Assembly (NCBI GenBank): GCA_965153455.1
Contig: OZ234493.1
Coordinates: forward strand, 5,952,001 to 6,016,000
Reading direction: 5' to 3'
Length of the DNA stretch: 64,000 nucleotides
Origin: Sphagnum compactum
Lineage: Eukaryota
Below are positions 4,394 to 56,140 of the stretch, in pieces. The position numbers and the translations under genes are program-made. The notes beneath the pieces were generated by a model. It had not been told where the DNA came from. It made no database searches and was given only the letters and a program-made list of their open reading frames with translations. How positions within the stretch are numbered: the stretch's first letter is position 1; each line of letters begins with the position of its first letter.

Positions 4394-7114
4394 ATGGCAT
4401 TCGAAGTAGCGAGAGTGCATGGCATCATCCGCTCCAACATTCGGGAGGATGGAATCTGCTCCAAGGCAGCCGCTTCATCACCATCGTCAATGCCTGGAAG
4501 TTTTGTTCTTATTCAGGAACAAGGAGAAGCTCTGGTTCATGTACAGAAGACGCAGCAGCAGCAGACTGGGGTTGCAGATCGGTCTTGTCCTCCTTCCGGT
4601 ATACGGCGGGACGCTAGCTTCAGTGCTGCGTCGTGGTCAGATGTGGTTCCGTGTTCTTCATCGCTCGCGTCCTCCTCTCATGACTCCACAGAAGAGACCG
4701 AAAACGACGAGGAGGACGACGATGAGCTCCTTTTGGCAGGACTCGCCCAACATGTGGCGCAAACTATGCTCAATGGTGCCGCAGCCGACGACGACGACAG
4801 CGTCCTTCACACTGCCAGTGGTGTTGATGGGAAAAAAACTCACAACAGTTTGTGCACTGAAGCGAACAAGGTAGGCAATCTCTTTCTCTTCACTCTTGTG
4901 TTCCTCGCGTGTCCTGAAGAAGCAAGTATGCTTCCCTGCGTTTCCTTTGAAACGATCTTTTTCAGGGAAAAAAAAAGCCTGTCGTTTGAGAACCGCTGTC
5001 AAACTGTGGCAGGCAGCGGAGTCTTCTCCTCCATCAAGCTGGTCTAGTGGAAGCTTGTTGCAATGGCCGCAATCGGCGACAAGCAGTAGTACAGCGAGTT
5101 CCAAGGGCTCTTCCCGTATGTCATCGCAAGTCTCTTCTCCGCCAACAACTCCTGTGGAAGCAAAGCGAAGCGATGCGTGGGATTTACTACACGCCGCAGC
5201 CGGAGAAGTCGTTAGATTGAAAATGCACCAGCAGAAGAAGTCCATCATGTCTTCTTCTTCTTCTCCTACAAACAGATATCATCCGAAGCAGCTTCATCAT
5301 GTTCAATGCCAACAACAACAACCTCTGCAAGCACACTGCTTCCAGGTCCCTCCTGCAGCAGCAGCTCCTCAGATACGAACGCTGCCTGGCTGCGGCATTG
5401 TAGCAACAAATGCCCCTCCTCCTACGACTGGTATCCTGCAAGCTGCAACGATCTTACCTCACCTTAGGAACACAAATGAGAGGCGGGCTCCAATACATGG
5501 ATCATCAGCCTATCATCAGCAAGGCTGGAACTCTGCTGTTGCAAGAGGCGAGGGTCACCAACATTACAGCACCCATGTAAGGTTTTTCTTTGTAGCGTCT
5601 TTCAATATGATAGCATCCATGTAAGCTTTCCTTTGTAGCTTCTTTCAATGTTACAGCACCCATGTAAGCTTTCCTTTGTAGCTTCTTTCAATATAACAGC
5701 ACCCATTTGAACTTCTGATTAGTGGCTTCTTTTAATTTTGTTACATGACATGTTGGCGCAATCCATTCTGATTATTGAAGTCTTTTAGTAATCATTTGAA
5801 TTCGGTTTTCTGCATCAGAAGTTAGGGTTTGGGTTGATCTCAGACTAGAAGAAGAAGATGATCAGGAGCTGCTGGGCATATGATCTCTCATCTGCAACAG
5901 CACTGCAGTTCACAAGCTCTCAAACTCTGATCCTTTCTGATTCAATCTTGGTTGTCTCAGCAGCTGCAGCAAATGGCAATGGAAACTGGTGGGCCTGGAG
6001 CAGTGCTCGGGTTTCAGGCCAGGTCCTATCCTGTATTTTATCACCAGCAGCAAAGCTGCAGGCCTGTTGTTTTGCAGAAGAGTTACCAAGGACAGTGCCA
6101 ATCAGACAGGTTGGTTGATTACCACACTCCACAGTGGACCACTACTGCTGCACAGCGGGGAGGGTTAGGAATGAGAGCTGTCTTCTTGGGATCTGGAAAC
6201 TCTCAGCGTAAGTCCAGTGGTACAGGGGTATTTCTTCCTCGCAGTGTGGGAAATGGTGCTGAACTAAAAAGAAAGCCTGGTGAGTGTTCTGATCTCCATT
6301 GCTAAGTGTACTGGAACTGTAAATGTCTTGTCAAGATGGGCTTCATCTTCCCATGCTTCCGGAAATGTGAAAGCAATCCCAGGACACAGATTTTGTAGAA
6401 TATTTTGCCCAGATTTTGGGCTGATTATTATTATATATTCATTCCACTGCACTGTTGGCAGCTGATGAAGTCAGTGCGAAGTCATGGCAACTAGTCACTG
6501 CTATTAGTGATGGAGAAGCAATCAGATGGTCTGACACTTTGTGAGTGACTCTTATAAGGTTATGACCACGCTCGTTGTTATGGAGATTTTCTCTGCAATT
6601 TGGTAGATATGTTGAACTCTGACAATGTTCACCTGTTGTGGCTGGATCAACAGTTTGTTCAACTGTGCTGCTTCCATCACGGATAGTGCAGGTGTTAAAC
6701 CTGAATGTGGAGAATATGTGTTCTCATCTGTCCTTGCCTTCATCTTTTGCTCATTGTACTTCATACTCAGGCAAGTCTTCTCTGTTTGAGTCAGTTTCTG
6801 TGTGCCAAGGATGAACAAATATGCTTCAAAATCCTATTCAGACAGTGCTCCTGATTTTGCATGATACCTGGTGACAGTTCCTTCCCAAGATCATTGGTCT
6901 AACAGAAATAATTATGATGAATTGTGCAGATCACTCAGCCTCAATGCCTGCTTCACCGAGTTTTTCTTGTAATTTAGGTGTCTCTGCTATGGGACGCTCC
7001 AAACAATCATTTGAAGAGGGTTGGCTTGCCTCTTGTGGGAAGAGTTGTCCCCCATCAATGCTACGACAGAATCCTCAACCAGAGCTCTGCCTTCCCTCAG
7101 AGTGGACATACTAG
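4394..7114 (+). CDS. Plant-specific uncharacterised protein with GMRAVFLGSG...SGTGVFLPR, KP-CSTVLLPSRIVQVLNL and C-terminal LPSEWTY motifs
   Basis: Phase-consistent exons 4394-4870, 5013-5576, 5961-6279, 6654-6770 (GC donor) and 6930-7114. The motifs match a conserved land-plant family of unknown function (recalled, not searched). Confidence 0.85.
5566..5706 (+). repeat. 43-44 bp tandem repeat (~3.3 copies) spanning the exon 2 donor site
   Basis: ACAGCACCCAT|GTAAG(G/C)TTT..CTTTGTAGC.TCTTTCAAT repeated; GTAAG at 5577, 5621 and 5664. Confidence 0.9.
6340..6600 (+). mobile_element. Dispersed ~270-nt structured repeat, copy A (intron 3 of gene 1)
   Basis: Shares GCCCA..TTTTGGGC, CACTG..GCTGATGAAGTCAGTG, GTCATGGCA.CT.GTCACTGC and ACTTTGTGAGTGAC..AGGTTATGAC blocks with the copies at 13977, 14560, 20434 and 45335. 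Confidence 0.8.
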
Positions 7115-9027
7115 CTCTCAGAGCTCGGAAACCCTTAAGATGACATCTGTTTTTGGAGGGCGTGTTGTTTTGCACAGTTAAATAATTTTTGGAGATCTCA
7201 ACGAGGTGGAACTAGACACAGCAATTCATTGGCTTCAGGGAGCACAACAATGTGGAGTATTCTACTACAGCATAGAAGATTTGTGAGACAGAAGAGTCAG
7301 AGGTAGGTGCAAAGGAAATTATCATGACAACAGTGAGAAAGTTGAGAGGAGTAGAATCGTTTTTCTCTTGCTAGTCAAAAAGATGTATAGTAAGCTACCC
7401 TGATATTTTTTACTGAAGGAATGAGCCTCCTGCTCTGTACAGTAGTAGCAAGCAAATGGGCTCATGAGTATGGGTTACATTTTGGAGGCCCTTTTTTTTT
7501 CCTATGGGATATATATATATATATATACATACATACGCCTCTAGGACAGGACAGAATAAGTTGCATCCCTTCTTGGGAACTACAGCCTTACATTAATAAG
7601 TGTGCCATTAGTATATGAGCGGAAGTGTCTGGTTGATTGCTTTGGGTCTTTGCCTATTGCCATAATTTCAGTATATATCTGGCTTGACTCCAGGATTATA
7701 TTCTCAACAGGTTGTAATTTTTCTTGTAGTGGCTTCTATCAGCAGGTGTAGTGAGCAGTTTGTATGACGTATTTTTCCATCTCTGAATGTTTTCTTCATT
7801 TGTGGCTCAGCTTTGCAACAACTAACAAAGTATGATGCTACAACTCTGTTTGGTTTTTGAGATTCCCCTGAACTCTCAAGCTCTTGACCTACTTGGATGA
7901 ATAAAAAGGGCATCTTGGTAGGTTATGTACATGTTGAAAATTCAGTACAAGTGGGCTAAGGTTATTAACTGGTTATAAAATTCACTAACCGGATGGTAGG
8001 CTATGGATACCCAGGTTAATAACTCGGTCAAAACTCAAGCAGTGGACACTGGGTAAAACCCTAAACCCCAGTGTGTGTGTGTGTGTGTGTGTGTGGTGGG
8101 TGTAGTGAGAGCTTTGTGCAACCTTTAGAATGCTCTCTTTGTAACTCACAATTCTCATGCAACCCTAGAATGTATAGATGGCCATTAGTCGGACCTGGCA
8201 GAATGGCAGGTGGCATTCAGCCAGGTTTTACAATGGGCCATTATTTGACATAATTGTCGTTGGGACGCGGTAGGAACAATTTGCTGCCTTTGCACGTTCT
8301 ATGTGACAGATGAATTTGAAAGCGCAGCTGACAAGAAGAGGAAGCTTTGGGGTGAGGAGGAGCAGAATTTCACACCAGTTCATTACGCCATTCAGGAATC
8401 AGCAACAGCAAAATCCCAAATCTACTAAATCTTAAATCTACTCAAAATGTACATCTCTTTGTCACTTTGTGTGTACCACGTTTAATCTATACTACTGTTC
8501 AATGCCCCATCCATACTTCTCAATCCATTATGATAAGTCTCTGGTTTTGGTAACTTGTACAGAGTCCAGCCCTGTTAGGGGCAGTAAAGTCACATGGCCA
8601 GTGTTGGCTGTTGGGTGGTGGTTTTCTCTTTTTTTAAATGAAAGAACAGGTAGGTAAAAGGTAACCTAAATGGGCCTTCTTAGGAAAGACAGAAATTTGA
8701 AATTCTTTTGGGGTTTATGTGTTTTGTTCCCCTTTATTGTTCCCAATAACGTTCCAAAGGGTGTTCTCAATGGTACCCCAGTTCATTTTCATGTCCACAA
8801 CATTTGTTCTTTGATTGCATCCCCTATGCTTTATGAAATGTTCCTTATCTTGTTCCCTCAGTTCCCATTTTTCTTCTACATATGTTCCTTGTTTATATGT
8901 CATATGTTTTGTCAATTGTGCCCATGTTCTTCCCTCAGTTCTCAAGTGTCCTGATGTCAATCCCACTAGCCCCAATTCTTGTCTCCCATATTCCTTTGCC
9001 CAATGCCTCACTCTTCTAGCCGATGGA

Positions 9028-9126
9028 CCAGATGGAAAAGATGGCCTCAGTGGCCAGCTCCCACCAGTGCACCATCCAGATGGAAAAGATGGCCTCAGTG
9101 GCCAGCTCCCACCAGTGCACCATCCA
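9028..9126. repeat. Perfect 48-bp tandem duplication
   Basis: CCAGATGGAAAAGATGGCCTCAGTGGCCAGCTCCCACCAGTGCACCAT occurs twice. Confidence 0.95.
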
Positions 9127-12107: not shown

Positions 12108-15100
12108 TCACATGTTGACATCCTTCCCTGTACCTGACTTGTCCCACAGCAATTCAGAGGTATTGTTATCATCTTCTGGCAGCATCACTGCAGCTCCATT
12201 TTCTGCAGCAAGTAGTGGATCAGACACACCACTCTCTTTTACCTGCTTCACCCCAATGATTCCCAAAATATCCCAGCACAGCAAATTTCAAAATCCCTCA
12301 CCAATGAGGACCCTGCTAGAGACAACTGCTATAGAGAGTGACGAAGAAAACAAAACATTTCTGATAATTTCACATGGTAAAGACTTGAGACCCCATAGAT
12401 TGCATTTTAGTGCATCTGTGCAAGGAAAACCGTAAGGATTCTGGTAAACCACGAACAAATTACCTGCAAAGATGTAGCTGTATTGTCCTGAGCCTTTTGC
12501 TGACTTTCCAGAATACAGGCATGACTATAAAGTCCCATTCCAGACAATGCAATGAGAATCCCACATACATTGCGCCAACTGAAAGGATTGTTGAGTACAA
12601 GGTATCCAAGGGCCAAAATCAGGCATGTCTTCAGATGCCCCAGTACTTGATATGTAACTGCAGATGTCTTTCCAATCACCAAAAAAGTGCTAAAGTTGAC
12701 CGAAACTGAAATCATACATGACAGTACAATGAACATCTGTCATCCACACAGACAACACCAGGCATTCGAGAAGTTGAGAATTGAGCCCAATCAGATGACA
12801 CAAAGTATTCCAGGAAACCTCAGATATTAAACCACAAAAAGGAATCCAGAACTCAAGCCACATATACCAAGAAGTTGTCTAAATGGACACAAGATGGGAA
12901 ACTCACCAAGATATAAGAAGTGTAGTCAAAAGCAAACACATTCTTTTTGGTCAAAGCAGCATCCAGAAAAGGCCCTGTGATAAACAAGGTCACTGCTTGG
13001 TATGGGCAAGACTGGTACAGCAGCTGCGTGGATGACAGCTTGAAATGCTTTTGAATTTTGTTGGTCATCTGGAAAAAGGAGCAGTTAAGAAAAGAACCCT
13101 AAAAAGAAGTCATATAGGATAAGATGAATCTGGTAGCTCATATAATGAGTATAGAGTACTCAATAGCATCAAGCCAGTAGGCCAAGGGTCACAGGAACCA
13201 CCGAATTGAAGATGTTGCCCATGATAACAAATATAGCTAAGATGGAAGTCACCAAAATGGTCACACAATGTGTGGAATCTTAGGGGCTATTGGGTCCTTT
13301 GGAAAAAACCAGGTGAGCACATTGCCTCTATTAAAATGTGTACCATCAGAAAAAAAAAGAGGACACTAAGAGTGCTTGCTCAGGAAACCCTGGTATCCTT
13401 CATCCTCTAAGGCTACATAAGAAAGGATACAATTTGTGCCACACATGTAGTCATGACAGCTAATATAGCAACAATGGAGCCCAGCACATTAAGTTGCAAA
13501 TCAGTGACAGTTGCAATACCCACACCCACCAATAGTGTCATAAGTGAGAGCTGAATTCTTTGGCTGCAACAAGACAGTTCATTAAGCACTGTACTGCAAG
13601 GACATACAACTGAAATCTATGGATCAGCAGGGTTGTCAATTTATTTCACCTTAGTGGTTTGCTAATTTTTGTCCAAAGTGTGAGAGCCAAGTGATAGACC
13701 ATACAGAAGACTTAGTGACAATGTCAGCTAGCAGTCCAGAGAAATAGCTAATAAAAAGCCAACAGTATCCTCTCAAGCTGCAACAAGATTGTAAGGGTAA
13801 GCTTCATTTCATTATAGCTTGCCCCTGTACAAGCAAAAAATAAGCAAGAAATTTCAAAGGAGAGTGTATCTTTGCAGCCATCAAAATCCAAGGGGTTCAA
13901 CAGATTGCAACATCATAATGTGGCTCAAGGAAGCCGTCCCTTGAAATCTTAGACCCCACTTGAAAAGATCGATGAAGTTGCAGAGAAATCTCCACAACAA
14001 CAATTAAAGGTAACACGACAATGAGTGCAGTCATAACCTCATGAGAGTCGCTCACAAAGTGACAGACCATCACCTTCATCACGAACGGCAGTGACGAGCT
14101 GCCATGACTACCCACTGAGTTCATCAGCTCCCAACAGTGGGTGTAGATAAGCATATAATAATCTTCCCAAAAAACTTGGGCAAACCATTATACACTATCT
14201 GCGTCCTGAGTTTCTGTTGCCTTTCCGGAAGCAATGGGAAGACTCAGACGTGATGTTGGCTAGCACTCAAGAGACATTGCTAATCAAAAAAGTCAACAGT
14301 ATCCTCATTCAAGCTGCAACAAGCTTCTGAAGGAAAGAGCTTTTATTTCATTTTAGCATGTCCCTGTATATGCAAGCATCTATGCCTAAAGGACATAGAA
14401 GCCTATATAAAGGGTAGTGGTTGGGCCCTCCTGCACCCTGAACATATCCTTTAAGACCCCACTTGAAAACTGAAAAATGGTTATGAAAAACATATGCCTG
14501 CTAATTACAGGTTCAATGCTTACAACAAACAATCCCAAAAAGCATAACTGTGAGATTGTGGACAAAACTCCACAACAAAACTTGAAGGTAACATAATGAT
14601 GAGTGCAGTCATAACCCTATGACTGTCACTCACAAAGTATTAGACCATCACCTTCATCATGAATAGCAGTGACAAGCTGCAAAAACTACCCCACTCACTT
14701 CAACAGCTCCTGATGGTGGGTGTGGATAGGTGTATAATGTCCTGCCCAAAATTTTGGGTAAACCATGTAATATAAACATTTGCATACTGAGTTTCTGTCA
14801 TATTTCCACAGGCAACAGGAAGATTCAGTCAAACAGTGCAAAAAGAGGAGCAGGGAGTGAGAGTACCTGAACTGCTTGCCAAAGAAAAAAGTTTCAAGAA
14901 ACACTGTGCAGGGAATAATTGCAAGTTTAGACATCTGCAAAATTGGTTGGCCACAGGGTTAAGGCTTACAATCAGCAACAGAGATAATTCAGTCTCTCAA
15001 GTGTGGCCTCAGGATGGGAAGAAGATAACAATCCATATCAATCATATCAATGCCTAGAACTCCAAGAAACAAATGGCTTACTCAAATGGGAGTGTGTACA

Positions 15101-18462: not shown

Positions 18463-20433
18463 GACAGCGTGTTCCTAGCGTGGGATTTTTTTTAAGCCTA
18501 ATTTGGTTTTGAAAGGTGTATTCATGAATCTACAATGTTGACCTGTTTTTTCATTTCTACTCACATCCAGACTTTTGGATTTGGTGAGGTCGAACAGTAT
18601 GGCACATTTTTTTAGTAAGTTCAAGAGGTTTTTGAATCAAAGCTGAGGGCCAATACAGCAAGAGGGATTTATGTACACTATCTGTCCCATTGCTGAAATT
18701 CATTGGCAAGTGATCAACTAGTGGTTGATCTCATCTTTATGCATGCATGTGAAGTTGAATTGGTCTTCATTTTGAGTCAGCAAATTCCTCTGTGGCTTCT
18801 GGTGTTTTGTTAGCTTATATTGACTCATCTGCTAAAACTCACAGCTATCAATTTGCTGAACAAGATGTGACATAGATGTGATGATGTAACCTGAGACAGC
18901 ATTGCCTTCCAGAAGTTGAACAGAAACTCTAAATTTGAATTTTTGTGTGTTTGTTTGACTAAAGTTTTGAGCAGATTACTCTGTATGCACTTGAAGAAGC
19001 TGATGTTGCCAGTCGGGTTGTAATGTTAGCTAGTCACCACAATTCCTGGTGATGGTTTGGTTCCACAATTCCACAGTTATATCCATATTTGCAAGAAGCT
19101 ATGACTCATTTGTCATGTTTATTTTAGTTTTGGTGGAAGTGAGTTTTACTTCAAAGTGATACTGTGAGGTTTCCACAACATCTCACAGATATGTGACATG
19201 ACAAAGAGTTATGCACTTGGAGTTTGGCAGTGGACAAATTGTCATAACAATGTGAAACCAAAGGGTGACACTTGAACATAAGCATTGTACAAATGGTTGG
19301 ACATGTGATATAAGTAGTGATAACATCATTTATTGAGCGAAATTACTTAGTACCTGGAAAAATCCCCATCTTGCCCAGATTTACATCAAACTGGTTTTTT
19401 CACCATCTTTAGATCTTTGGTTGTCTGGCATCGGTGTTTTCTTTTAGCAATTTTGTGATTGTAGCCAAAGTTGCAAATGTCCAAAAACAGATTCTGCATG
19501 GATTGGCAACACAATTTGTGGAAAATTGCCAAAACAGTAGCCAGTTTTCATAAATGTTGTCACACTCAACCAAAGCAAAAAAAAGCCCTTGAAATCTGTT
19601 GAATATTTTCTTTGAAAAAAAGTTGTGACAGAATATTCCATTAAAAAGAAGTGTACCCTCCGTGCATAAATTTGCCACAAAAAACAACATGTTATCACAC
19701 CTGCACGTTTGGTGTGAATTTTGAAATACATGAGTTAAAGGCAAATCAATATGTTAAAACCAACAATGGTGAAATGCTTGGTGATAAAAGTAATCATCTT
19801 TTCAACCAAGTCATCAAGAAAATTATTCTGAACAAAGGGTATTTCAAGAACTCTATTCCATATTTTGCCTGATCAAGGCAACCTCAGAAAGATCAGACCT
19901 TACCCTACGATTCCACTGGAACACAGCATGCCATAACCATTTCTAGTTCAGTAATTGTAAAGCCCTATTCTATCTATAGCTTGACCAAGGCGATCTCTAC
20001 AAGATCCACTTACTCTATACTTCCAAAAACCCCAGATGCCATAAACATTCCATGTACCATGGTAGTTCAGTTTTATATCAGAGAGAAACATCAACCTGTT
20101 GCCAACTGCAAATGCATTTATGCCAGCAGGAACTTTGTGAGTAGGATGTTCACTGCCCTGCTGTGGTTCAGGAAAGAATTAAGGATCACCAGGAAGTGCA
20201 TGAGCATTCTAATCTTGTTCTTGCAAGTCAAAATCACCAATCAACCTAAAATATAGCTAGCAAGCTCAGATATTCACAGTTGCACTTATTCTCACCATGG
20301 GACTGTATAGATACTTTGTGCGTAGGTCAAATTTTGTCAATCGCATCTTCCATCTCAGAAAATAGAACACATCAGATTCCAAGGTTCATTGATCAGCCAT
20401 TGAATTCTAGGATTGTTCTCATATCTATGAGAA

Positions 20434-20660
20434 GTGCAAAGAAACCCCACAATAACACTTTAAAGATAACCATTGGGTCAATTCCAGGAAACCAAAACCA
20501 CCACAACATGGATGACTGACGTCATAACCTTATGATTGTCACTCACAAAGTATCAAATCATTACCTGGACAAAGAATAGCAGTGACTAGCTGCCATGACT
20601 CTCCACCTGACTTCATCAGCTTCTCACAGTGGATGTAGACGAGTATATAACATTGTCCTC
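20434..20660 (-). mobile_element. Dispersed structured repeat, copy D (just 3' of the gene 4 stop)
   Basis: The minus strand reads TCCACTG..GCTGATGAAGTCAGGTGGA GAGTCATGGCAGCTAGTCACTGC..ACTTTGTGAGTGAC..AGGTTATGAC. Confidence 0.75.
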
Positions 20661-20825
20661 ACTAAAAGAAATTCCAAGATGGATTCTCTACCAACATGGT
20701 CAACTTTTCAAGGAGATACACATTTCCAACTTACTCTTGTTTTCTTTCTTTATCATTGGCACTGCTATTCATGTCAAAAGCAGGACCAGGACAAACATAA
20801 TAGAACACTTAGAAATTTATTGATT

Positions 20826-24267: not shown

Positions 24268-25216
24268 TGTAATGGAAAATGGGGTTACCCTAACTTCTGA
24301 GCGCCCACTGATCAGGGAGCCTAATTGACGTTTCTTTGAGCCGTTTTGTGTCTCTGACGGCCGCCTTTGCATTACATCTGCATGGGTTGCACCTTGGTCG
24401 AGGATCTGTGACGGCTGACTGAATGGGCATGGAGTCTGTATGGCGGCTCCGAATTATGATGAAGGATCGTGCTGCATTTATGAAGGATGGCGGTTTGGAA
24501 GCGTAAGGAGGAAGCCAAGGCGATTGGGAAGGAAGATCGAACCAAATAGAAGAGAGGCGAGGATTTTTGGGGGTCTGATGTAAGAGATATTCTGTCTGCA
24601 GAAGAATGGAGCGATGGTTAGGAAAGGATAGTGTGTAGAGGTCAGTGAAGTAGGATAGGAGCTGTGCAAATTCGGTCTCTTTTTGGAGCAGAAGCATCTG
24701 TCTGCGTAGGAAGCCGACGATGTTGAGAGAAGGCAAGTAGAGTCGGACAGAAGGAAAGGAGAAGATTCGATAGCTCGGTAGCAAGGAGTTGGTAGCCATG
24801 ATCGTGATCTTCCGCTGCGTCTGATGTATGGCTAAGCTCGTTGCTACAGGAGTTCCTAGGAGAGAGTGTGTGTGTTTTAAGGAATGATCAGACCCTCTGG
24901 TTGTGAGGAGTTGAAGTTCGAGGGCAATGCTTGTGCTCTCGGACTATGTATATAATTTGATAATGAGAATCCGGGTATTTTCTTGAGTACATTCATCTGT
25001 GAGGCATGATCAGAGTCGCATCTCGTGTCGAGTCTTGTGTTGCTGAGTCTGTTGCAACTCGGATCGAGCTGGATCGGAGATCGGGCAGGTAGGCCGTTCC
25101 CAGATAGGATGGGATAAGTGTACATGGATGTGAATCGGACTGTAAGAATGTGAGTACCCAGGGTCTGAGGGGGGGTGCAGCGCATCGGGCTGTAGGTTTC
25201 TTGGACCCGCTCTTTT
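24268..25216 (+). repeat. 5' LTR (lacks terminal TTACA)
   Basis: Starts TGTAATGG and matches 31431-32388. Ends ...CGCTCTTTT directly followed by the PBS. TATA-like TATATAA at ~24949. Confidence 0.93.
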
Positions 25217-25228
25217 TGGTATCAGAGC
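25217..25228 (+). other. Primer binding site complementary to the tRNA-iMet 3' end
   Basis: TGGTATCAGAGC, the canonical plant iMet PBS. Confidence 0.92.
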
Positions 25229-25450
25229 AGTTGCGATCTGGTAGTTCTGGATCGAACTTGAGAGTGTGGATGAGATGTCAGATGAGCGATCATGTCATCG
25301 TCAAGTCCAGAAGAAATATCGCCCGAGATATTAACACGGGTAACCCGTGAGGAAAGGCTCCTCCTTTGTTTTGATTTCTACATTAGTTAGGGAGGACCTA
25401 CCAGGGGCGCCGTAGTTTTGCGTTTTGAGGGATTTGGTGTGGTGACCATT

Positions 25451-25967
25451 ATGGGATTCGACCCGGAAGCAGCTCGCGTAGGAGACATCGCAGTCGAAAT
25501 TGATCACAGTGGATTCCATACAAGGGCAGAAGTTTGGGTGAAGGCGAGGAATGGACCGAGTGGATGGGTCTCAACCTCACGAATGCAGCACCAATATTAC
25601 TTCACGACGTACCTTGCATAAAGTGACGCCATCGTTGGCCGAGGAACTGCGTAGTATACCAAGAGTCGGTGACATCTGGGTGCCCAAGTCGATGCCCACA
25701 GCAAACCATTTTCCCCGAATATACATCCCTGGAATGGAAGATCTGTTCCAGACAGGGGATCGGGTCATCAGGATAGAACATGGAGGATCGCGCTCGCGTT
25801 TGATCTGTTGGCAGATCTGGCGTGATGCAGGAGATAGTTGGCAGTTCCAGCTAGAATCTTCAGATGAGCAAGATTTCTCTCTCAGTCCCTCTAACTTTTC
25901 AGCTTTGCCTTTGAGACCTGTTCATGAAGGCGAGCAGGCTACATTCCACGGTCGGAATAACATTTGA
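25451..25967 (+). pseudogene. Extra ORF upstream of gag (frameshifted), unknown function
   Basis: ATG 25451 MGFDPEAARVGDIAVE... overlaps the ORF 25551-25967 ...PRVGDIWVP...; protein-like composition. Confidence 0.5.
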
Positions 25968-26007
25968 TTTTTGAGAATTTTGCATTAGGAGTGAGCTTCT
26001 TAGCAGG

Positions 26008-29000
26008 ATGGCGAGTCCACAAGGACTAGATGATCTGTTCTGGGGACGTGACTGTGAGGACGTCACCGACTGGGCTGAGCGACTGACTATGGCCGCAGAA
26101 GTCCGGGATCTGACACCTGACAAATTATTCAAAATTGCCAAACTGAACCTACGAGGCCGGGCGAAAGAATGGGTTCGGCAATTGCAACTGGCGCCTGCTG
26201 ACTGGGCGGCGCTACGCACGCTCATGATACAGAAATATGGGAACATCGACGCCGATGACATCCGCATGAAGCTGGATGCCATCAAGCAAGAACCCAAGGA
26301 GCGCGTCCAAAAGTACTTCGAGCGATCGGACAAGTTGTTCTGAAAAGGTCAGATTCAGGATGTCGAACAGAGAAGGAGGTTTTTGGCCAGTTTAAGGCCA
26401 AAAATTCGGAAATTGTGTGTTGTGCGGGTGTTCGCAAATATTGAAGAACTCGTTGGAGCTGCGATTGAGGTGGAAAGAGTTCTTGGCGAACTTGGAGGGA
26501 CGCCATATGAAGCTCTTCAGGAGGAGCAGGAGGAGGATACATCCGAGAGTACCATGGAGAAGCAGGTTACCGCACTGAACAATACCCTCATCAATCTCTT
26601 CAAGGGGAATTCGCATGACTCAGCACCATCATCTTCTTCCACTGCCTTTGGAGGATGCCAGCTCTGTAAGGGTAAGGACCATCTGGCCACTGCCTGTCCG
26701 AGGCTACATGAAGCACGGCCGAAATGTGCCAAGTGTCATCTGCCGCATAGGACGGAGAACTGTGGTGTCAAATGCACTTTCTGTACAGGACTTGGTCACT
26801 CTGAGGATAAATGCTGGAAGAAGACTAAGGATGGGAAGTCAGCATCTGGGCCGACGAATTTCTTGGAGGTGATGCTTGATGACGAGGCGGCGACCGAACA
26901 GCGACTCAACAGACTATGTGGGGGTAAGAATGCATTCTCATACACTCGGGTGCCGAGAAGAAGAACTCCTGTCGATGTGACGCCAGGAGGGATCGCACCA
27001 GTTCCTGAGGCTGGGAGAGAGGGAGCTGGCCTGAACAGGGAGGTTCCTGTAAAATCCAAAATTCTCTCGCATTTTATCAAAGGGAAAATTGCTTTGTCCC
27101 ACATGGAAACTGTCCTTATGATACTAGGTGAGCTGGAGCACTTGGAAAGTTTGGTCAAACTCGCAAGAAGGAAAAGAGATTCGGAGACCACCGAAAATTA
27201 GGTTTCAGTGGTCTCTGCAACTCCATCGCTCCGAAAGATTTGCGTTAGTAAGACGCATCGGAGTAAGACTCTGCACTTACCTGTAGAGATCAGTGATTGT
27301 GTCATTGAAGGACCAGTGGATACCGGGGCATCCATGTCGGTTTTGGCTGCCGCTGCAGTGAGGGAACTAGGCATAATGCATCTTGTAACTGGAAATGAAA
27401 GTTACAAGACAGCATCTGGGGTAGTCACTCGGGCACTGGGTCGAGTGGATGAGGTACAGGTGAAAGTCGGGGGAGTACAATGTACCATGACTTTTACGGT
27501 CGTGGATACGGATGGGTACGACGTGTTACTAGGCCTGGATTTTCTGATGAAGATCGGGGCTGTGGTTGACGTAGACGAGGATTGATTCAGGTGAGGCACG
27601 GACCTGGGACACACGTGGAGGTCTTGCCACTCACCGTGGTCAATTTACTACAGAGAGTGAGCACGGGTCAAGGAGAGAATGGGACAGTGACCTGTGTGAA
27701 GAATACACTTGCTGATCGGAGTGTCTGTGTGGAATCCAATCAAGATCAGGAGGGAGCCGAAGGAGAGAAGGACGTATCCAGCTCGGATTCCGATAATGAG
27801 AATGACGAGGATGAGTTTCATGACTCAGAGTGTAATCCTCTGGAGCAGTGTGATTCTGACGATGAGTTTATGGACCCTGAACTTGAGGAGCTGATAAACT
27901 CAGAAGGAGCACAGGGAATGTTGCAACTGATGTTGCAAGATTGGACTGATGGGATCATGACGGAGGAGAACTCGGATGGAGATGACTACGCTGATTGGAT
28001 TAAGTGGTCATCCGATGCAGAAGGGAACAGGTCAACTAAGTGTGAGACCGCACGCGATGTGCTCGGGAAAGTGCTGTTACAGCAGGACAAGCCCGATCAT
28101 GGCTCAGTGATCCCAGCAATATTTCAAACCACTCACGCGAGGACTAAAGAATCTAATCGCAAGACTAAAGAGGGGTGCGTATTAGGCAACCACTCTGAGT
28201 TAGAGATTAGATGGAAGGAAATCTGTGAGCGGATCAAGGTCGACGCTGAGCTGGATGAGCAAGGGCAGCAACAACTCTGGGCAACGCTAGAGAAATACAA
28301 GGACGTCTTTGCTTGGAACAAAGGCGAACTGGGCCACTGCACTATCGGTGAGCACAGCATTGATACGCAGGGATTTCCGCCTTGCAATGCATCTCTTGGA
28401 CGACTGTCTTTCTGGGAGGAGGCTGATGTCAAAAGGCAGATTGATGTCCTGGTAGACCTAGGTAAGATGCGGCCTAGCAACTCAGAATATGCCTGTAGAG
28501 TGACGCTGCCAGTAAAGAAAGACGGGAGTAGGCGTTTATGTGGAGACTACAGACCTCTCAATGCTCAAACGCGACAAGACATGTTTCCAATGCCGCTCGT
28601 CGAAGACGTAATTGATCAGCTAGGCAAGTCAATATGGTTTACTGCTCTTAACCTACAATCTGGTTTTTGGCAAATCCGCATGGCTCCAGAAGATATGAAG
28701 AAGACAGCGCTGATCACCAAAACTGGACTCTATGATTGGACTGTGATGCCATTCGGACTAAAAAACGCGACAAGTACGTTCACACAAACCATGTCCAAGG
28801 TATTCAAGGATTTAGGGGGTGCGTTTCTGAAAGTGTTCGTGGACGACCTCAATGTAAACAGTGAGACATGGGACGACCACCTTCGGCATTTGGAGGCTGT
28901 GCTTGGCAAACTAAGGGAAGTAAATCTGAAACTCAATCCTAGCAAGTGTTGTTTCGCTGCTAAAAGCATCACCTTCTTAGGGCATGTTGTGAGCAGGGAA

Positions 29001-31412
29001 GGTATACAACCTGATCCTGGAAAGGTTAAAGCAGTCCTACACTTCCCAACTCCGAAAAGTGTTACATGTGTCAGATCTTTCCTAGGACTAACAGGCTATT
29101 ACCGAAAATACATTAAGGGCTATTCGAATCTAGCAGGCCCTTTGTTTGAGTTAACAAGAAAGGATGTTGTATTCGCATGGAATGTGAATTGTGAGCAGGC
29201 ATACCAGGCACTGAAGGCAGCACTGGTGCATGCGCCTATACTCACACGACCGGATTTTAGACGAACTTTCTGGCTGGACGTGGACTGGTCGCCCAAAGGG
29301 GTGGGAGCCATCCTGTCCCAGAAGGAAGGAAAATTTGAAAGGGTGGTGGCATATGCCAGCAAGAGCTTGACTGACACACAAAGGAGGTTTCATCCGATGG
29401 AGGGGGAGTGCTACGCTCTAATCTGGGGAATAATGCACTTCAGACAGTACTTGCATATGAAGCACTTTATCCTGCGAACGGATCACAAACCGCTAGAGTG
29501 GCTAGCGACTGTCTCTGATACGCATGGTCGAAGGGGCAGATGGGTCGGAATGTTGCAGGATTTTAGTTTTAAGATAGTGCACCGACCAGGGCTGAGGCAT
29601 ATGAACGTTGATGCCTTGAGCAGGAACCCGGTCGGATTGGCGGAGGAGGATGAGGATTTCGGTGAAGAAATCCGGGACATTGTAGGTGCCCACCCTGATG
29701 CACCTGAAGAGGAAACAGAACTCCTCTGTGTCACAGCAGGCAAGGATACTGACTGGATGGGCATCAGAAGAAAGGACAGAAGGTGTGTATAGCACAATGC
29801 CTGTTGTTTTGGCATCAATCATCAGACGGATGGCCACAGCCATTAGTTGTTCATGTTGGGTGTTGAATCTGAGGAGGAGGATTTGGAGGAATATGTTCCG
29901 GATGAAGAAGTAGCACCAGCGCCTGATGCACCTGTGCAAGAGAATGAAGAACAGGTGGTCCTGAAAAGGAAGAGGCCACAATATTACGACAGAAGACAAC
30001 AGTTGGAATTAGTGCTGGCAGCCCAGGAGCTGTCTAAATTTGGGGACCCTGATTTGAGCCCCATAGAGCTCGATGAGGAGGAAGGGTATGGTGCGGAGCA
30101 CAACTGTGCTGACATCTGGCAAGACACGGAGTGTCTGAGACTGATAAGGGAAGGTACACTGTCTGACGCAGTAGACTATCATGAGTGTAGAAGGATTCGA
30201 AAAAGGGCAAGCAATTACTGCTGGAAGGAGCAGAAGCTCTTCTTCAAGACATTGTTAGTGCCCAAACCCGAGGAGAGGCTGTCTCTGGTAAAACAGATGC
30301 ACGAAGACCTAGGGCATTTTGGTGAACAGCGAACGTTGGCAGAAATTCGACGTAAATATGTCTGGAACAGTCTAACTACAGATGTGAAGGCGATGGTCAG
30401 AGGTTGCCAACAATGCCAATTGGTGAGAAGCTCAAGAAGCATCCGATCAGGGGATGAACAACTGAAGAGCATCCCTGTTTGTGACTTTTTTCATCGAGTT
30501 GCCCTAGACACAGCAGGGCCGTTGCCCGAGACTAGATCCGGCAACAAATACATCCTGGTGGCTGTTGACCACTACTCCAAGTGGTGTGAAGCGAAGGCAG
30601 TTGCTGATCATGGAGCCAAGACAGCAGCTCGATTTCTGGAGGACGACCTGATCTGTAGGTTCGGTGTCCCGAAATTCATACTAACTGACAATGGGGGGGA
30701 ATGGGGTGCAAAATTCGAAACCATGTGCAAAGACTACGCCATCCACCACCAACGCACTGCACCACAATGGCCTCAGTGCAATGGGATGGCAGAACGAATG
30801 ATCAAAACGCTTAAGCACGGCATCACTGTTCTGGCTGCTAACCCTGCCAATATGAATTGCTGGGATGAACACCTAGCCAAAGTGCTGTTTGGATACCGAT
30901 GTGGAATCCAGGCAAGCACTAAGTTCTCTCCTTTCATGACTCTCACTAGCCACACACCTCGTTTGCGGGCTGACAACTACTTGCAGGCTTTGACTACTGA
31001 GACTGACGATGGGGATGACATAGAAGAGGCTGCAGCGCAGTTTCTGCAGAAAATGGAGCTCATTGGAAGCATCCATAACAGCGTCCTGTGTAATGTGGAG
31101 CAGGCGCAAAAACAGCAGAAGAAAGTCTATGCTGCTCGGAGAGGTAAGCATTTATTTGAGGGACTGATTGCAGGTCAAACCATGGTGAAGATGAAGAAGC
31201 CAGGGAAGAGAAGGGCTTTGAGTGCAAGTTGGGAGGGACCCTACCAGTTTATTGGACACACAGATGGAAAAGGGAACCTGGATTTTGAGGAAGGCTCCCG
31301 ACTGTGCATCATTCAGGATGGCGAAGGTCACCAATGGGAAAGATCTCGACGGGACCTCCAAATCTTCTACATTCCACCAGATCAGATGGAGCTGAGGGAC
31401 TCAACTGTTTAA
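26008..31412 (+). pseudogene. Gag-Pol polyprotein with 3 in-frame stops and 1 frameshift
   Basis: Gag from ATG 26008 with zinc knuckles; protease VDTGAS; RT LCGDYRPLN, MPFGLKNA, FVDD; RNase H DVDWS..GVGAIL..TDHKPL; integrase HEDLGH..CQQC, D-D-E and WEGPY. Stops at 26341, 27199 and 29790; frameshift at ~27575. Confidence 0.95.
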
Positions 31413-31423: not shown

Positions 31424-31430
31424 TTACATA

Positions 31431-32388
31431 TGTAATGGAAAATGGGGTTACCCTAACTTCTGAGCGCCCACTGATCAGGGAGCCTAATTGACGTTTCTTT
31501 GAGCCGTTTTGTGTCTCTGACGGCCGCCTTTGCATTACATCTGCATGGGTTGCACCTTGGTCGAGGATCTGTGACGGCTGACTGAATGGGCATGGAGTCT
31601 GTATGGCGGCTCCGAATTATGATGAAGGATCGTGCTGCATTTATGAAGGATGGCGGTTTGGAAGCGTAAGGAGGAAGCCAAGGCGATTGGGAAGGAAGAT
31701 CGAACCAAATAGAAGAGAGGCGAGGATTTTTGGGGGTCTGATGTAAGAGATATTCTGTCTGCAGAAGAATGGAGCGATGGTTAGGAAAGGATAGTGTGTA
31801 GAGGTCAGTGAAGTAGGATAGGAGCTGTGCAAATTCGGTCTCTTTTTGGAGCAGAAGCATCTGTCTGCGTAGGAAGCCGACGATGTTGAGAGAAGGCAAG
31901 TAGAGTCGGACAGAAGGAAAGGAGAAGATTCGATAGCTCGGTAGCAAGGAGTTGGTAGCCATGATCGTGATCTTCCGCTGCGTCTGATGTATGGTTCAGC
32001 TCGTTGCTGCAGGAGTTCCTAGGAGAGAGAGTGTGTGTTTTGAGGAATGATCAGACCCTCTGGTTGTGAGGAGTTGAAGTTCGAGGGCAATGCTTGTGCT
32101 CTCGGACTATGTATATAATTTGATAATGAGAATCCGGGTATTTTCTTGAGTACATTCATCTGTGAGGCATGGTCAGAGTCGCATCTCGTGTCGAGTTTTG
32201 TGTTGCTGAGTCTGTTGCAACTCGGATCGAGCTGGATCGGAGATCGGGCAGGTAGGCCGTTCCCAGATAGGATGGGATAAGTGTACATGGATGTGAATCG
32301 GACTGTAAGAGTGTGAGTACCCAGGGTCTGAGGGGGGGTGCAGCGCATCGGGCTGTAGGTTTCTTGGACCCGCTCTTTTTTGGTTACA
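31431..32388 (+). repeat. 3' LTR (958 bp)
   Basis: TGTAATGG...TTTTTTGGTTACA followed by the TSD GGAT. Confidence 0.95.
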
Positions 32389-35300: not shown

Positions 35301-35399
35301 TAGCCCATATGAAGTTTCATTTCCCATGTTCATTCATGGGATTTCTAAATTCATTGGATCCACATGTGGAATCCTCATACCAACTTTTTTTTTTAACAA

Positions 35400-35970
35400 G
35401 GACATGGATTATGATCTTGGACAACCACAAGGCCTCAATATCCAACCATGAATCATTACTTCATAAGTACCAGCAGTAGCCATTTGAAAACACATTCATT
35501 GTGGCTTTCTTCACATACATTATCAAAGGATAATTTGATATAAAAGTGAAAGTTTGAGCATTGGCTAAGTGGTCACACTTGATTTATTCTTGTAAAGGAT
35601 ATACAACCCATGATCTTGAACAACTATTAAGCCCCAATATTTGACCATGGGTCATTACTAAATAAGTAGTGGCAATAGTCATTTTGAAACACTTCCACCA
35701 TGGGTTTCTTCACATATCCTATTAAAGGATGGTTGGTTAAAAAAAAAAGTTTGAGTGGTGACTAAGTGATGGTGTTAAAATATTTTTCGCAAAAGACATG
35801 GCTTATGATCTTGAATGACTATTGGGCCCCAATTTCCTACCAAGTGTCATTATTCCATAAGTAGTGCCAATAATTATTTGGAAACACATTCAATGTGGGT
35901 TCTTCAAACACCCTATCAAGGGACAATTGGTTGAAAAATAAAAGTTTGAACCATGACTAGATGGTGGTGT
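35400..35970. repeat. Degenerate ~195-bp tandem repeat, 3 copies
   Basis: Recurring blocks ATGATCTTG.ACAAC, TCATTA.T.CATAAGTAG, AAACAC.TTCA..GTGGG.TTCTTCA and AAAGTTTGA at ~35411, ~35610 and ~35805. Confidence 0.75.
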
Positions 35971-37142
35971 TCAACAATTAATCAACATTATTTAGAATAT
36001 CATAATAGGTGTTTGTGAATACATCAATGAGTGTTTTGTCAAGCACCATGTCAAAGGACAAGGATTTTTTTTAAATGTCAAACTATTATGAAGTCCTACT
36101 ATCCAACCTTATATAATAACCCATTTTAGTTATTAAATAAAGGGCCAAGGTGAACCAACACCTACATTGGTACCATATTGAGTGAAAGTGGACAAGATGT
36201 GTTGCAAAATATCATTCATTTTTCATGACCAAAAGCCAAGGCTTTCAAAATAAAGAGTTGGTAATGGCCCATTTGACTTATTATTTTTAGTCTTTGAAAA
36301 TGGCAAATTGAATCCTCCTCTTCAAGCTTTCATAAACAGAAGGTTGAAAATGGCCCACATATTTTAATATTTTACATTTGTGAAAAATGTCATGAATATT
36401 CTTCCCCCCAATGGGTGCGGCTTTTTATTTCTTTAGGGAATCGATCACAATTTGATTCAAAAGTGGCACCACAATTATTTGAGTTCTTATTTTTGCTCAA
36501 ATTAATCTAGCTTATAATTTTACCCTTTAAAACCCCCTCACACATTAATGTACATTTTTGACAAATATTGCATTTAACCATATTATTGTAAATTTTGGAG
36601 GTTAAATGCACCATAGGTCTAAGGTTGCAAACCTTGGAAAATGAACTAGAAATGTTGCATCTTTAACTTCAATTTTATTTAAATGTGTCTTAGTGTTTGT
36701 TATAAAACTTTGGGAAAACCATCATTCTTATAGGAAGTATTGCAAATGAGCTTTGGAAAAAATATGTCACTAATCCCATGGACAAATTTGTAAAATAACT
36801 ATTTTATTATTATTATTTCAGTAGATAATTTATGATTGATTGAAAGTTCATTTTAAAACCACCATTATGTTGTTCATTTATTGTGATAATATATATAACA
36901 TAATATTATGTTAAGTATATTGTAACATTTAGAACATAGCCAAAATTGTGAAAGGTTTCACACAAGGTATAACAAAAAATCTAGTAAATAACATTTTGTG
37001 GTAGGTATAACGTATACACTTGTGATAAGTATACCACAAAATCCAACAAGATTCAAATATGTGACATGTATAAAATATGCATTTGCGACAAATATAACAT
37101 AAAATTTTAACAAATCATCAAAATTATGACATGGGTATACAC

Positions 37143-42726: not shown

Positions 42727-45700
42727 ATGGATGCGCGTGCTGTTCCAACTTGGCTTCACGCGCAGATCGAGTATCTCCGGAACAATGCTCCACTTCCCTT
42801 GAAGGTTCGTTGTCGTCACGTGTTGTTCCCCTCCTCTGCTTCTTTCTACATTGTACTTATTGGCTGCTGGTTGTGCAATTTTAAGGCGAGGGGTTAGATC
42901 CGGATGCAACACTGTTCTTCTTGGCAGAGATCGCCCATGCCCATGTGTCAACTTAGTGCTCGTCATGTGCTCCTTCTGTGTCCTCGTGAGCTCGATAGTT
43001 TTAGGGTTAGGGTTACTGCCATCATTTGTCGAGTTCGTCTGTGTGTGGGTTTTGTGACTTTCGTAGTTTTCTTGTTTTTCCTCGCATTTCCTGTTTTCTT
43101 AGAGGGTCGTTCTCAGGTAATATCTGTAGCTATGAATACAGATACCTCCTGTAAGCCACCTGGGTTCACAGGACCCTGACTACTAACCTATGAGCCCTAA
43201 ACCTCCTAGCGGGGGTTGCTATAGCTCCCCAGATCCTACCCCAGGGCTTGGAAAGTCCCTTCATGCACTGACTGCAATTATATCTGAGGTGATGCTTATT
43301 GTGATATCTGCCACACACCTATTAGTTTTGATTTGAATGCAATTCCACTTGCAGGTTTGCAGGGATCTTGTCCATGATGATTTTGAATTGAGACTATTTA
43401 AGGAAGTGACTGATGAATGAATTGAACACAAATGTCTGCAGGTTGAGAATTTGAGAGCAGGCACTCGTGGTGGGCATGTCATGGATCGGTTCACAGTGCT
43501 TGTTCCCTGCTGCCTTTCCAATGTCAAGTGTATGTTGTTCATCTTCTGATTCACAGCTCTTCTCCTTCTGTATTCATCATTGTTGCACATATATATCACA
43601 ACGACCTGTGCTTTTACAAATTTCCTAGCCAGTTGACCTGAAATCACAGGATGTCGAAGCTATTGTCTGCCTGAGACACTAAAAGAACATGTGAGACATG
43701 CCTTGCCAACCTTAGCAGAAATCTGTTGGGAAACTCTTCTTGTGACTCTAGGAGGACTTCATTATTATAACCTCAAGCCTTGTTCATTGAAGTGGGCAAT
43801 GGAAGTGAGTATGACATTGCCATGCCTGGTGTGCATGTTTGGGACCATGGCATTCATAGTATAAACCACTGAATTTCATACCTCATTGTCAAAAAGTCAT
43901 TCACGTGTGTAGTTTGAACCAGGTCATAGACGACATAGGATCCCACAATGTTACAGACATTCAATCGATGGTCTGACAATTGCGTGTGTGAAGAATGATA
44001 TTGGCCACTACATTAAGTGTAGGACCTGGAGGAGTTATAAAGTCAAAATTTCATGAATATCAGATATCGCTTTGAAAGGTTAGATCCAGTGTAAGCCTGG
44101 TATGCATGATTGGGACCATGGGAATTCCATGTTTTTTTGGTTGTGAGAAGGTGACACAAAATGATTTGGGAATACAGTCACAAGAATTGTGTGCAGCCTG
44201 TAGAAATGAAACATTTGTTGTTGAGGACATTCTGTTGAATGGAAGAGGGCACTGGGTAGGAATTTAGAGCCACCAAAGTGTTCAGGGCCAGGAGCTAGAG
44301 TCAAAGCCTGGGCCCAGAATTTCATCCCTTGCACCCATTCCAAAGCTGGATGAATGGCAATTCTGCTGTATTGCTGTTAGCAGCTGCTCAACAAGGATGA
44401 TCTTTGATTGGGGTTGCTTTGTGCTGTAGTTTTGAAAGAGCTTGCATGGCAGGGGAGGTGGTGTTCAATGGCCTTGATGCAAAGGTGGCACCAGATATTA
44501 TATTTGGTGTGGATGATGAGAGCTTTCAACCGCTTGCAAATAGTAGTGAGTTTTCACCAGGCTCTTTTCTTCGAGATTGGACAGTCACAGAACCCAACAG
44601 TCTTTTGAAACTTATCCTTGTGACAAGGTATGACTTTTTTCTTCATGTTATGGGAATCAAGCGTATACAAGAACCAATATGCCTGTACCTTCTTTGTGTT
44701 TGTGAAATTGCATGTTTGTGGGGAAGTTGATGGGTTCTTTATTTTTCTGTGAATTGACAACCTTGTGTCTCTTAAGAAAGATCCCATTGATCCTGATCAA
44801 ATGGTAATACTCATATTTGAATGTTTATCACCACTCACAAACTGTCATGGACTCTCCATAATAAACTCAGTCAGTTTTTGAAACTAAACTTTTGCTCATC
44901 TCCATTTGTGCTATTTCCAAGATACTACATTGTGCTTGATGGTGAGAAATAATGGTCTTTTGGACTAAAATGCCTGTATCATGTTATCAATAGTTTGGTG
45001 GATGCTGCATAATTCAGGGAGAGAGATCATGTTTGATTCTGCCTACGAGGGCTGAGATGCCTGAAGGCTAACAATTTAAAACAGAGAGCTCCATTGACCA
45101 AAAGCTCCAGAAATTTCATTTTCGAGTTGTTGGTGCTAAAGGACTTGAACCCAGAGTAGTGCAGTGAGACAATGTCAGCAAGGGGATGTTGATTTGGAAA
45201 GGTGGGCACATGTGGCAGGGGTTCCTATCTGGATTATCAGCGACACAGAGTTGAGGCTGTTAATGATCCTCGAGTTAAATTTGAGATTAACACCATGAGT
45301 GGTCTCCAGGTGTGCACAAATTTATCAGTTATGTATGTCTTCTGGGTGCTAGCCAACATCATGACCAAGTCTTCCTGTTGCTTCTGGAAATACATCAGAA
45401 ACTCAGGATGCAGATTCTGTACAATATTTTGCCTGAAATTTTGGGCAGATTATTCTAGACTTAGTTAAATCCCACTGCCAGGAGGCAATGAAGTCAGTGG
45501 TATTTGTGGCAGCTTGTCACTGCTGTTTGTGATGAAGTGGGACAGTCTTACACTTTGCGAGTGATTCGCATAATGTTATGACTATGCTCATATTACCTTT
45601 AGAGTGTCATTGTGCAGATTTCTCTGCAATCTAATTGATATGCATAAGATGTATCAATCATAATATAGGCTGTATTTAGAATCTGATGACCCAAATTGGT

Positions 45701-52684: not shown

Positions 52685-52814
52685 TCAATGACTGGTTATA
52701 ACCAGACATATGACCGGACATAACCAGTCATTGATTATTGACCTTTGAAGGGCAAACCTACTTTGACTATTTGGAGGATAAAATAGGTTTGCCCTTCAAA
52801 GGTCAATAATCAAT
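52685..52814. repeat. Two abutting perfect inverted repeats (15-bp and 31-bp arms)
   Basis: Arms 52685-52699 / 52720-52734 and 52730-52760 / 52784-52814. Confidence 0.92.
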
Positions 52815-52816
52815 AC

Positions 52817-55456: not shown

Positions 55457-56084
55457 CTCATATTGTGATCTCAAGAGGAGTATTAGTGGAAGCAATCTCC
55501 TTCCCCTTTGGACTTGAATTGCAATACCAGAAGTGAAACTGCCCTGTTTTGAACCAGTCCTAGTACCTCCAGCACCTGCTCAATGTCCTGAGCCTCCTGT
55601 CAACAGCACAGAGTTTCAAGTAGTGTCAGATGAATTGTAGTAGGGTTGTACCCATGAAACAAGCAACCAGTGAAGAAGATATAGAACACCTATCAGAAAA
55701 CCAAAAAACACTAAACACAAACATGACACCCCTTAAAACAAGTTCAGCCCTCAAAACAGATTTGGTCACATAATAAAACACACTTTTAGCCATATACATT
55801 TGTCCAATCTGAGAATAACAGTGTTGTGATCCACACCAACTTTGACAAAGAAACTTCAGAAGTATCAAGAACTTCTCCATACATCTGACAAAAGTCAATG
55901 AGAATGCAATTCAGACATGACCCAACAATCAGGTTACATAGATTTCAGGTCTGATAACATATTGGCAAAGAGGGAAAAAAGGGCGACCCAGAGCCCTACA
56001 AGACACTACAAAAAGCTGTGGAGCAGTTTGAAACAACAGTGACAGTCACACACATGTTCAGTGAATTTCAACAGCAACATGTAT

Positions 56085-56140
56085 GGTAATGACCAGCAGC
56101 TACCATAACATCCCTACAGACTTCATCAGCTCCCAGGAGA
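56085..56140 (-). mobile_element. Fragment of the dispersed structured repeat, copy F (AT-hook gene leader intron)
   Basis: The minus strand reads GGGAGCTGATGAAGTCTGTAGGGATGTTATGGTAGCTGCTGGTCATTAC. Confidence 0.5.

Follow-up and report, generated by a model that had tools for sequence, protein, structure and literature searches.

Penelope-like elements (PLEs) with the Naiad/Chlamys layout carry an N-terminal GIY-YIG domain, CxC and DK motifs, and a C-terminal reverse transcriptase (RT) (PMC8557442). Their non-autonomous relatives MRC1 and Chlamys-N4_cRei are non-coding and share 3' similarity with an autonomous PLE that has an N-terminal endonuclease (PMC8557442; 10.1101/2022.05.23.493040), and the de novo Chlamys insertions described in Chlamydomonas were all intronic (10.1101/2022.05.23.493040). 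Animal non-LTR retrozymes are small non-coding tandem units that are linked to PLEs, have target-site duplications (TSDs) of >4 bp, and are proposed to form a circular intermediate; these metazoan elements contain canonical type I hammerheads and are underrepresented in introns (PMC7229834; 10.64898/2026.07.22.740005). In the Poseidon PLE PAc, reverse transcription starts at a fixed internal stem-loop and cleavage is AT-rich (Frangieh et al. 2024, PMC11167929). Permuted hammerheads of type SGC have been validated in vitro; in the passages cited here, type SGC was known only from metatranscriptomes and type CSG only from metagenomes, with none in the genomes of known organisms (Eckert et al. 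2023, PMC10085705). We analyzed a stretch of 64,000 nucleotides from the moss Sphagnum compactum (contig OZ234493.1 of assembly GCA_965153455.1, positions 5,952,001 to 6,016,000, forward strand; hereafter the window) and a repeated element within it. With a probability of about 0.65, this element is a non-autonomous retroelement that is moved in trans by a Naiad/Chlamys-type PLE, inserts into genes in sense orientation, and has a circular monomer and a permuted hammerhead core.

A first-pass annotation of the window had described a structured element of ~270 nt. The repeat is real, but its length had been underestimated: the monomer comprises 544 nt. Copy B (13967..14455, minus strand) is a young insertion corresponding to unit positions 55-543 and differs from a unit at locus L003 by a single nucleotide. 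It is bordered by TSDs of 16 nt upstream (14454..14469) and downstream (13951..13966), both given on the minus strand, the downstream one with a T-run at its start. For copy B, 3154 first-look candidates were obtained in the 382-Mb genome, and 40 of 40 scored matches were 99-100% identical. Arbitrarily chosen stretches amounting to 560 kb contained 17 clusters, which extrapolates to ~1.2 x 10^4 copies when every age and the PLE-tail types are counted. Young copies were picked solely by identity over the last 100 nt; 40 matches yielded 37 insertions after array units had been merged and one locus had been lost. In the flanks of the scored copy B matches, the 3' end was single and precise, the 5' ends varied, and direct repeats as well as tandems with a period of 544 were seen. 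TSDs of 13-20 nt were found by script in 26 of the 37 end-chosen insertions, and T was the first target base in 59/61 young insertions. The 5' ends concentrated at unit positions 222-254 (14288-14256 in the window; 10/37, p ~1e-4). A long helix is predicted whose 3' strand coincides with this hot spot; the hot spot also adjoins a T6 run and an acceptor-like AG and marks the point where homology to the PLE tail starts. Truncation there may reflect stalling of the RT at the modeled helix. The copies in the window are almost certainly 5'-truncated insertions of a non-autonomous, recently active retroelement of a PLE.

One fixed end, variable 5' ends, and TSDs of 13-20 nt rule out a miniature inverted-repeat transposable element (MITE), including the known MITE with terminal inverted repeats that the first-pass annotation had listed as a refuting outcome; its reading as a SINE-like retroelement under RNA-level constraint was supported, with a PLE as the mobilizing partner. 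Full units had no head matching an Rfam RNA of RNA polymerase III origin, which speaks against a SINE derived from tRNA, 5S, or 7SL RNA. The Rfam search suggested in the first-pass annotation returned no family at the gathering score, either for the window (eight weak matches) or for full units (13 weak snoRNA/miRNA matches), and the snoRNA and canonical ribozyme readings were dropped on this ground. Readings as a hairpin ribozyme, as an HDV-like ribozyme, or as a product of back-splicing at a shared AG/GT site were rejected by eye, as required parts were absent. A search of the PDB gave no match.

The partner PLE was recognized at loci L131 and L132, where a conserved core follows ~120 nt behind the stop of an RT frame; this PLE had 106 matches in the genome. 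An alignment of 17 tail copies showed that the PLE tail and the 544-nt unit are 82% identical over 67 nt at the core, and that the core element termed block C below is common to both. Only the core domain and a 3' hairpin are shared. In the 3'-terminal hairpin (13977..13998, minus strand; z -4.2 in the unit and -3.5 in the PLE) the apex is identical, the lower stem differs, and the distance to the 3' end is similar. By analogy, this hairpin would be the recognition signal that sets the start of the RT, because an internal stem-loop does so for the Poseidon PLE (PMC11167929). A fixed start as in PAc would give a precise 3' end on read-through or circular RNA. PAc itself is unlike the moss element in having a C-terminal endonuclease and a canonical hammerhead and in being autonomous (PMC11167929). 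The closest relatives of the moss PLE RT were a fern (Ceratopteris) protein, P0013, at 54%, and proteins with a GIY-YIG domain at ~29%. The endonuclease part lies in a separate upstream frame at locus L176; it has no Pfam match of its own and was assigned through P0017, whose GIY-YIG-bearing N terminus it matches with an E of 2e-7. CxC and DK motifs ahead of the RT were identified by eye. Judged by these sequence features, the partner is an N-terminal-endonuclease PLE of the Naiad/Chlamys type, and the shared signals imply that its protein would mobilize the element in trans. A PF00078 profile search of the genome showed no partner, the loci in it not being analyzed further, and scans of viral contigs yielded zero PLE relatives. 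One PLE copy (L176:4270-4320 region) contained a 13-nt duplication of the block C word.

The moss element resembles MRC1 and Chlamys-N4_cRei: it is non-coding, with 3' similarity to an autonomous PLE, and alike in head-to-tail insertions, heavy 5' truncation, and intronic targeting (PMC8557442; 10.1101/2022.05.23.493040). It differs from them in its clear 13-20-nt TSDs and its T-rich, non-microsatellite targets. It is also inserted near-absolutely in sense; the Chlamys passages cited carry no statement on orientation, although their supplements may hold such data. Finally, it contains a hammerhead-type core, whereas the Naiad/Chlamys clade has been described, in the passages cited, as being without canonical hammerheads (PMC8557442).

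That all copies are sense to their host transcripts had been noted for five loci in the window and was borne out far beyond them. Fifty loci were scanned with three open reading frames per strand each, and the strand of the element was that of the gene at 22/22 loci with a Pfam match. Base skew, which agreed with three known genes when calibrated, indicated sense orientation at 27/27 and 29/29 selected loci and for 37/37 end-chosen young copies (these sets overlap), as well as for 16/17 random clusters and 28/31 PLE loci from metagenomes. A matrix of the target site predicts 67% sense. None of 61 insertion sites lay in flanks with <33% GC, though such DNA makes up 37% of the target weight. Only one of the 61 insertions had entered an older copy, ruling out such nesting as the cause of the sense bias. 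The proposed closeness of copies to a 5' splice donor was not confirmed, as a donor motif lay within 70 nt upstream of 8/61 insertion sites and of 34/183 control points. We hold it probable that the strand bias is set at integration; sense insertion means that the cDNA would be primed on the template strand of the gene.

Head-to-tail junctions were identical in 13/13 cases. Eight of the 37 young insertions reach unit position 1, seven of them extending clearly past the junction and one by 2 nt. No 5' start fell at unit positions 1-19 in any of the 37, and a "full-length" class sharing one 5' end is therefore lacking. Variants private to an array were present in more than one of its units: A229C occurred in both L020 units, T454C in both L134 units, and the minor A314 allele (4/30) in all three L003 units. 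Jumps of the RT between unrelated RNAs are therefore rejected, and a circle or a homogenized tandem master fits. The longest array comprised 2.55 units. From RNA run X1, one closed contig of 573 nt (543 + 30) was obtained at a depth of 54, compared with 2-12 for the other contigs. Contig depths for X5, X8, and X19 (junction contig 5297 in X5 and 211 in X8; 5' half better covered in X5 than in X19) are summed contig means and were unused as evidence. On balance we lean toward a circular RNA as the template for the RT. The element resembles the non-LTR retrozymes in its small non-coding tandem units, PLE link, and TSDs, and differs from them in its plant host, its genic and sense insertion, and its permuted ribozyme motif. 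The canonical type I motif was absent, as full units had no Rfam hammerhead match at E up to 10.

A descriptor located the core words GUC (C17 = unit position 269), GAAAC (296), and CUGAUGA (383) in the unit, in the order S-G-C, with a stem I of 6 bp and a stem III of 7 bp in register. In copy B, on the minus strand, block S (5' strand of stem III, GUC, and stem I strand) occupies 14235..14247 with C17 at 14241, and the cut is predicted between 14241 and 14240. Block G, comprising CA-GAAA and the 3' strand of stem III, was placed at 14206..14216 by the descriptor and the conservation table. Block C (14111..14141) contains the other stem I strand and CUGAUGA (14127-14121) and is enclosed by a 7-bp "I" helix formed by 14141-14135 with 14117-14111. 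The stem previously seen around GCTGATGAAGT is present; it joins both flanks of block C, as in type-SGC ribozymes, and the reading we favor for it is that of the "I" helix in a permuted hammerhead. The core words together with a stem I of 5-6 bp and a stem III of 7-8 bp were found in 28/30 PLE-type and 33/36 young copies; over 52 copies, 89% of the cells in stem I, 79% in stem III, and 84.5% in the "I" helix were paired. The core set occurred by chance in 4/3000 shuffles, with thresholds picked after the motif had been seen, and in 4/1500 in a second run. The blocks are conserved between the PLE and the non-autonomous families while the linkers diverge, and old copies have broken cores. The predicted fold consists of two nested helices with block C open. 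In the order S-G-C, the presence of all core nucleotides, stems I and III, and the "I" helix, the moss core is like the type-SGC hammerheads of Eckert et al. (PMC10085705). We consider it likely, from its sequence, that the core is a homolog of permuted hammerheads, which agrees with the "degenerate ribozyme" among the options listed in the first-pass annotation.

Comparable motifs were present in other PLEs. Two of 15 distant PLE 3' regions, L274 (SGC) and L280 (CSG), fit a descriptor that lets the 5' strand of stem II lie upstream of S and whose stem III threshold was lowered to 4 after L280 had been seen; both fits were in sense, and the same descriptor was satisfied by zero antisense sequences and by 2/1500 shuffles. 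Each of the two motifs has a 6-bp Watson-Crick stem II and the same cyclic order as the moss core, with unrelated stem sequences that cannot be aligned. All 62 places with CTGATGA, the only word looked up, in the supplement of Craig et al. (PMC8557442) were read by eye rather than computed. Twelve of them lie in non-coding 3' regions of Naiads, of which nine, from six lineages, form all three stems in S-G-C cyclic order, two do so partially, and one does not. Two nematode records, identified by file order as Naiad-3_Nbra and Naiad_Hcon, show the complete type CSG, including a long "I" helix; the former is flagged "HHR_half_core". In Acropora, Octopus, and two further records with no visible header, stem II lies upstream, as in L274 and possibly in the moss PLE. 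According to the cited passages of Craig et al., canonical hammerheads are missing from the clade, and half cores are found 35-50 nt apart, on either side (PMC8557442). A permuted order would explain such flanking half cores and may explain why the clade has been reported to lack hammerheads. In the literature searched, which left most subscription papers outside, no report of permuted hammerheads in PLEs or of PLEs in Sphagnum was found. At L274:1-2640, the Naiad-type RT is fused to a C-terminal ubiquitin hydrolase domain (UCH, E 6e-27), with the SGC motif ~580 nt behind the stop. The sequences L271-L290 are eukaryotic PLEs in contigs of prokaryote genome assemblies, a placement most likely due to host or environmental carry-over.

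Several observations weigh against a working ribozyme and a circle. Stem II measures 5 bp and directly follows the core, with a linker of 3-4 nt, in the forms of Eckert et al. (PMC10085705), where cleavage needed all four helices. The moss core is unlike these forms: stem II next to the core has 2 bp in 28/30 PLE-type copies and 0 bp in 35/36 young copies, and the upstream partner of 6-9 bp that exists in the PLE is situated in G/U-rich sequence, with 866/5000 shuffles reaching it. The 2-bp stem II of the moss PLE has an A on either flank; mismatches beside A9 and G12 are also tabulated for other PLE hammerheads (File S2). In the minimum-energy fold, GAA pairs with a stem I strand, an off state. 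None of the 37 young 5' ends coincided with the predicted cut, the nearest being at 254 and 284. The hairpins claimed in the first-pass annotation can form, but covariation within the family was weak and significant compensatory change was not supported: 21/500 and 17/500 shuffles reached the score for 52 representative copies, and covariation at that score can come from relatedness alone. Covariation in stem I seen by eye (CA/UG versus UG/CA) failed, with three C-A cells at 274/378 compared with ~4 expected; position 275/377 pairs in 20/50. Among the distant PLE regions, 13/15 gave no match, several being short, the motif was missing at the four distant metagenome loci for which 3' sequence was available, and the CTGATGA places of the algal Chlamys consensi contained, by eye, only canonical motifs already tabulated and no permuted form. 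The X1 contig keeps the variant without stem II; contig depth is flat by construction, and contigs cannot separate a circle from tandem DNA or pre-mRNA. Such observations fit an alternative in which the same PLE-dependent retroelement has a folded domain without catalysis that would serve to bind protein or stabilize RNA and would be no more than the relic of a dead hammerhead, and in which tandems arise when tandem masters are read through or the RT jumps between templates, without a circle. That the most active subfamily lacks stem II, that the predicted fold is an off state, and that no 5' ends lie at the cut all speak for it, as does the report that hammerhead mutants left insertion of the Poseidon PLE in vitro unaffected (PMC11167929); a fixed master could also give the longest array of 2.55 units. 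We nevertheless regard this alternative as unlikely, since chance seldom places 13 core nucleotides and two helices in exact register, the blocks are kept in both the PLE and the non-autonomous families despite diverging linkers, other Naiads contain complete forms whose stems are unrelated, and the 13/13 junctions are without heterogeneity. The core was not filed as a type-SGC ribozyme, because its stem II is unlike that type, its fold is an off state, and no ends lie at the cut; at best, it would work like one. For the youngest 544-nt subfamily, where the case for cleavage is weakest, continued cleavage appears doubtful.

The sense orientation might also have arisen after insertion. A weak strand bias due to T-rich targets and open chromatin could have become near-absolute as antisense copies were purged from the haploid plant. 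In mammals, the orientation of intronic copies is shaped by selection. All copies examined here are survivors in one reference assembly that have already passed selection, with no de novo or rare insertions seen, and the sense bias may in part reflect purging. As the full account, purging is improbable to us, though somewhat less so than a core without catalysis: copies identical over the last 100 nt were sense in 37/37, purging cannot explain the 0/61 sites in low-GC DNA, and orientation bias can arise at insertion, as is partly the case for L1, there against sense (PMC5717806). The first-pass annotation had further proposed an intron-encoded host RNA or splicing regulator. A host-encoded family of structured intronic non-coding RNAs would account for copies that are sense, intronic, and structured and for the presence of the element in RNA libraries. 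It is contradicted by copies that are mobile and dispersed and number in the hundreds to thousands, many of them 99-100% identical, with TSDs, 5' truncation, and PLE homology, by the broken cores of old copies, and by the absence of both an Rfam family at the gathering score and donor enrichment, which leaves it a very small probability.

Mobility, the partner, orientation, and array structure are observed; under the preferred reading, that of a PLE-dependent retroelement with a circular monomer, the most likely course of events would be as follows. The PLE protein would bind the 3' hairpin, and target-primed reverse transcription would begin just 3' of it. At a T-rich site in a transcribed gene, the PLE enzyme would nick the template strand, copy the RNA, and usually stop early. 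Each sense copy would be transcribed within its host intron in the orientation it needs. Tandem copies would give multimeric RNA, from which a monomer circle would be cut and joined, and an RT running more than once round the circular monomer RNA would generate new tandems. In the PLE, the core would act as a slow or conditional self-cleaving ribozyme through which tandem transcripts can yield monomers; the core of the youngest 544-nt subfamily would be weakened or a relic. A wider proposal, which we put forward tentatively and at somewhat less than even odds, is that many Naiad/Chlamys PLEs carry active, non-circularly permuted hammerheads (CSG, or S-G-C with a detached 5' strand of stem II), which in the moss would serve a circular-RNA parasite without a promoter; by integrating on the template strand of transcribed genes, this parasite would persist as sense RNA within introns.

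All previously listed copies were recovered in the window by BLAST and nhmmer, 69-78% alike, and one further copy was found. The matched spans were 13972-14276 for copy B, 18906-19179 for the further copy G, and 45346-45634 for copy E. Copy A (6325..6603, plus strand, BLAST/nhmmer) is old. Copy C (14551..14833, minus strand) is old and has a mutated core word, and an old fragment from the 5' half of the unit (13705..13836, minus strand) was detected by self-BLAST with 14253-14375. The additional copy G (18893..19179, plus strand; nhmmer E 2e-14) is old, lies 3' of an RPS12/L7Ae stop codon, and is sense to that gene. Copy D (20431..20664, minus strand), also old, is truncated 5' of block C. Copy E (45327..45639, plus strand), old and with a mutated core word, resides in an intron of BRE, and fragment F (56040..56150, minus strand) is by eye nearer to the PLE-tail type in sequence. 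Between 32.4 and 42.5 kb, zero nhmmer matches to the element were obtained, confirming the absence of copies noted earlier for this region. Pfam confirmed the strands of TPT/UXT (minus), BRE (plus), and L7Ae (plus); gene 1, gene 4, and the AT-hook gene had no Pfam match, and their strands were taken from base skew and splice signals read by eye. All seven clusters in the window lie on the G+T-rich strand, i.e. are sense by skew. A twin of copy E, 99% identical and located ~107 kb away, occurs on the opposite strand (L032, G000:C1:6104656-6104956), and its flank statistics match; the pair probably stems from a duplicated BRE segment and not from transposition. Upstream of gene 4, an LTR retrotransposon occupies 24268-32380, with 950-bp LTRs that are 99.2% identical and RT, RNase H, and integrase frames on the plus strand. 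Tandem repeats unrelated to the element and an 85-nt inverted-repeat hairpin were located at 851-1113, 5564-5739, 35398-35974, and 52685-52814.

The element itself belongs to a known class; what is new is the reading of the core as a permuted hammerhead, the recurrence of this form in Naiads, and how strictly sense insertion holds when measured. In the cited passages, Naiad/Chlamys elements often keep "core" or "half-core" words though they are without canonical hammerheads (Craig et al., PMC8557442), and non-circular permutations had covariation support in no known organism's genome (Eckert et al., PMC10085705). The permuted topology joins these two reports. If the reading is true, non-circular permuted ribozymes would here be described from eukaryotic genomes for the first time, and the element would be a plant counterpart of the non-LTR retrozymes. 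Its near-exclusive sense insertion inside genes is the reverse of the L1 bias. If that bias is set at integration, it would indicate that target-primed reverse transcription is coupled to the template strand in a manner not yet described, and that an element without a promoter can make use of the transcription of its host genes.

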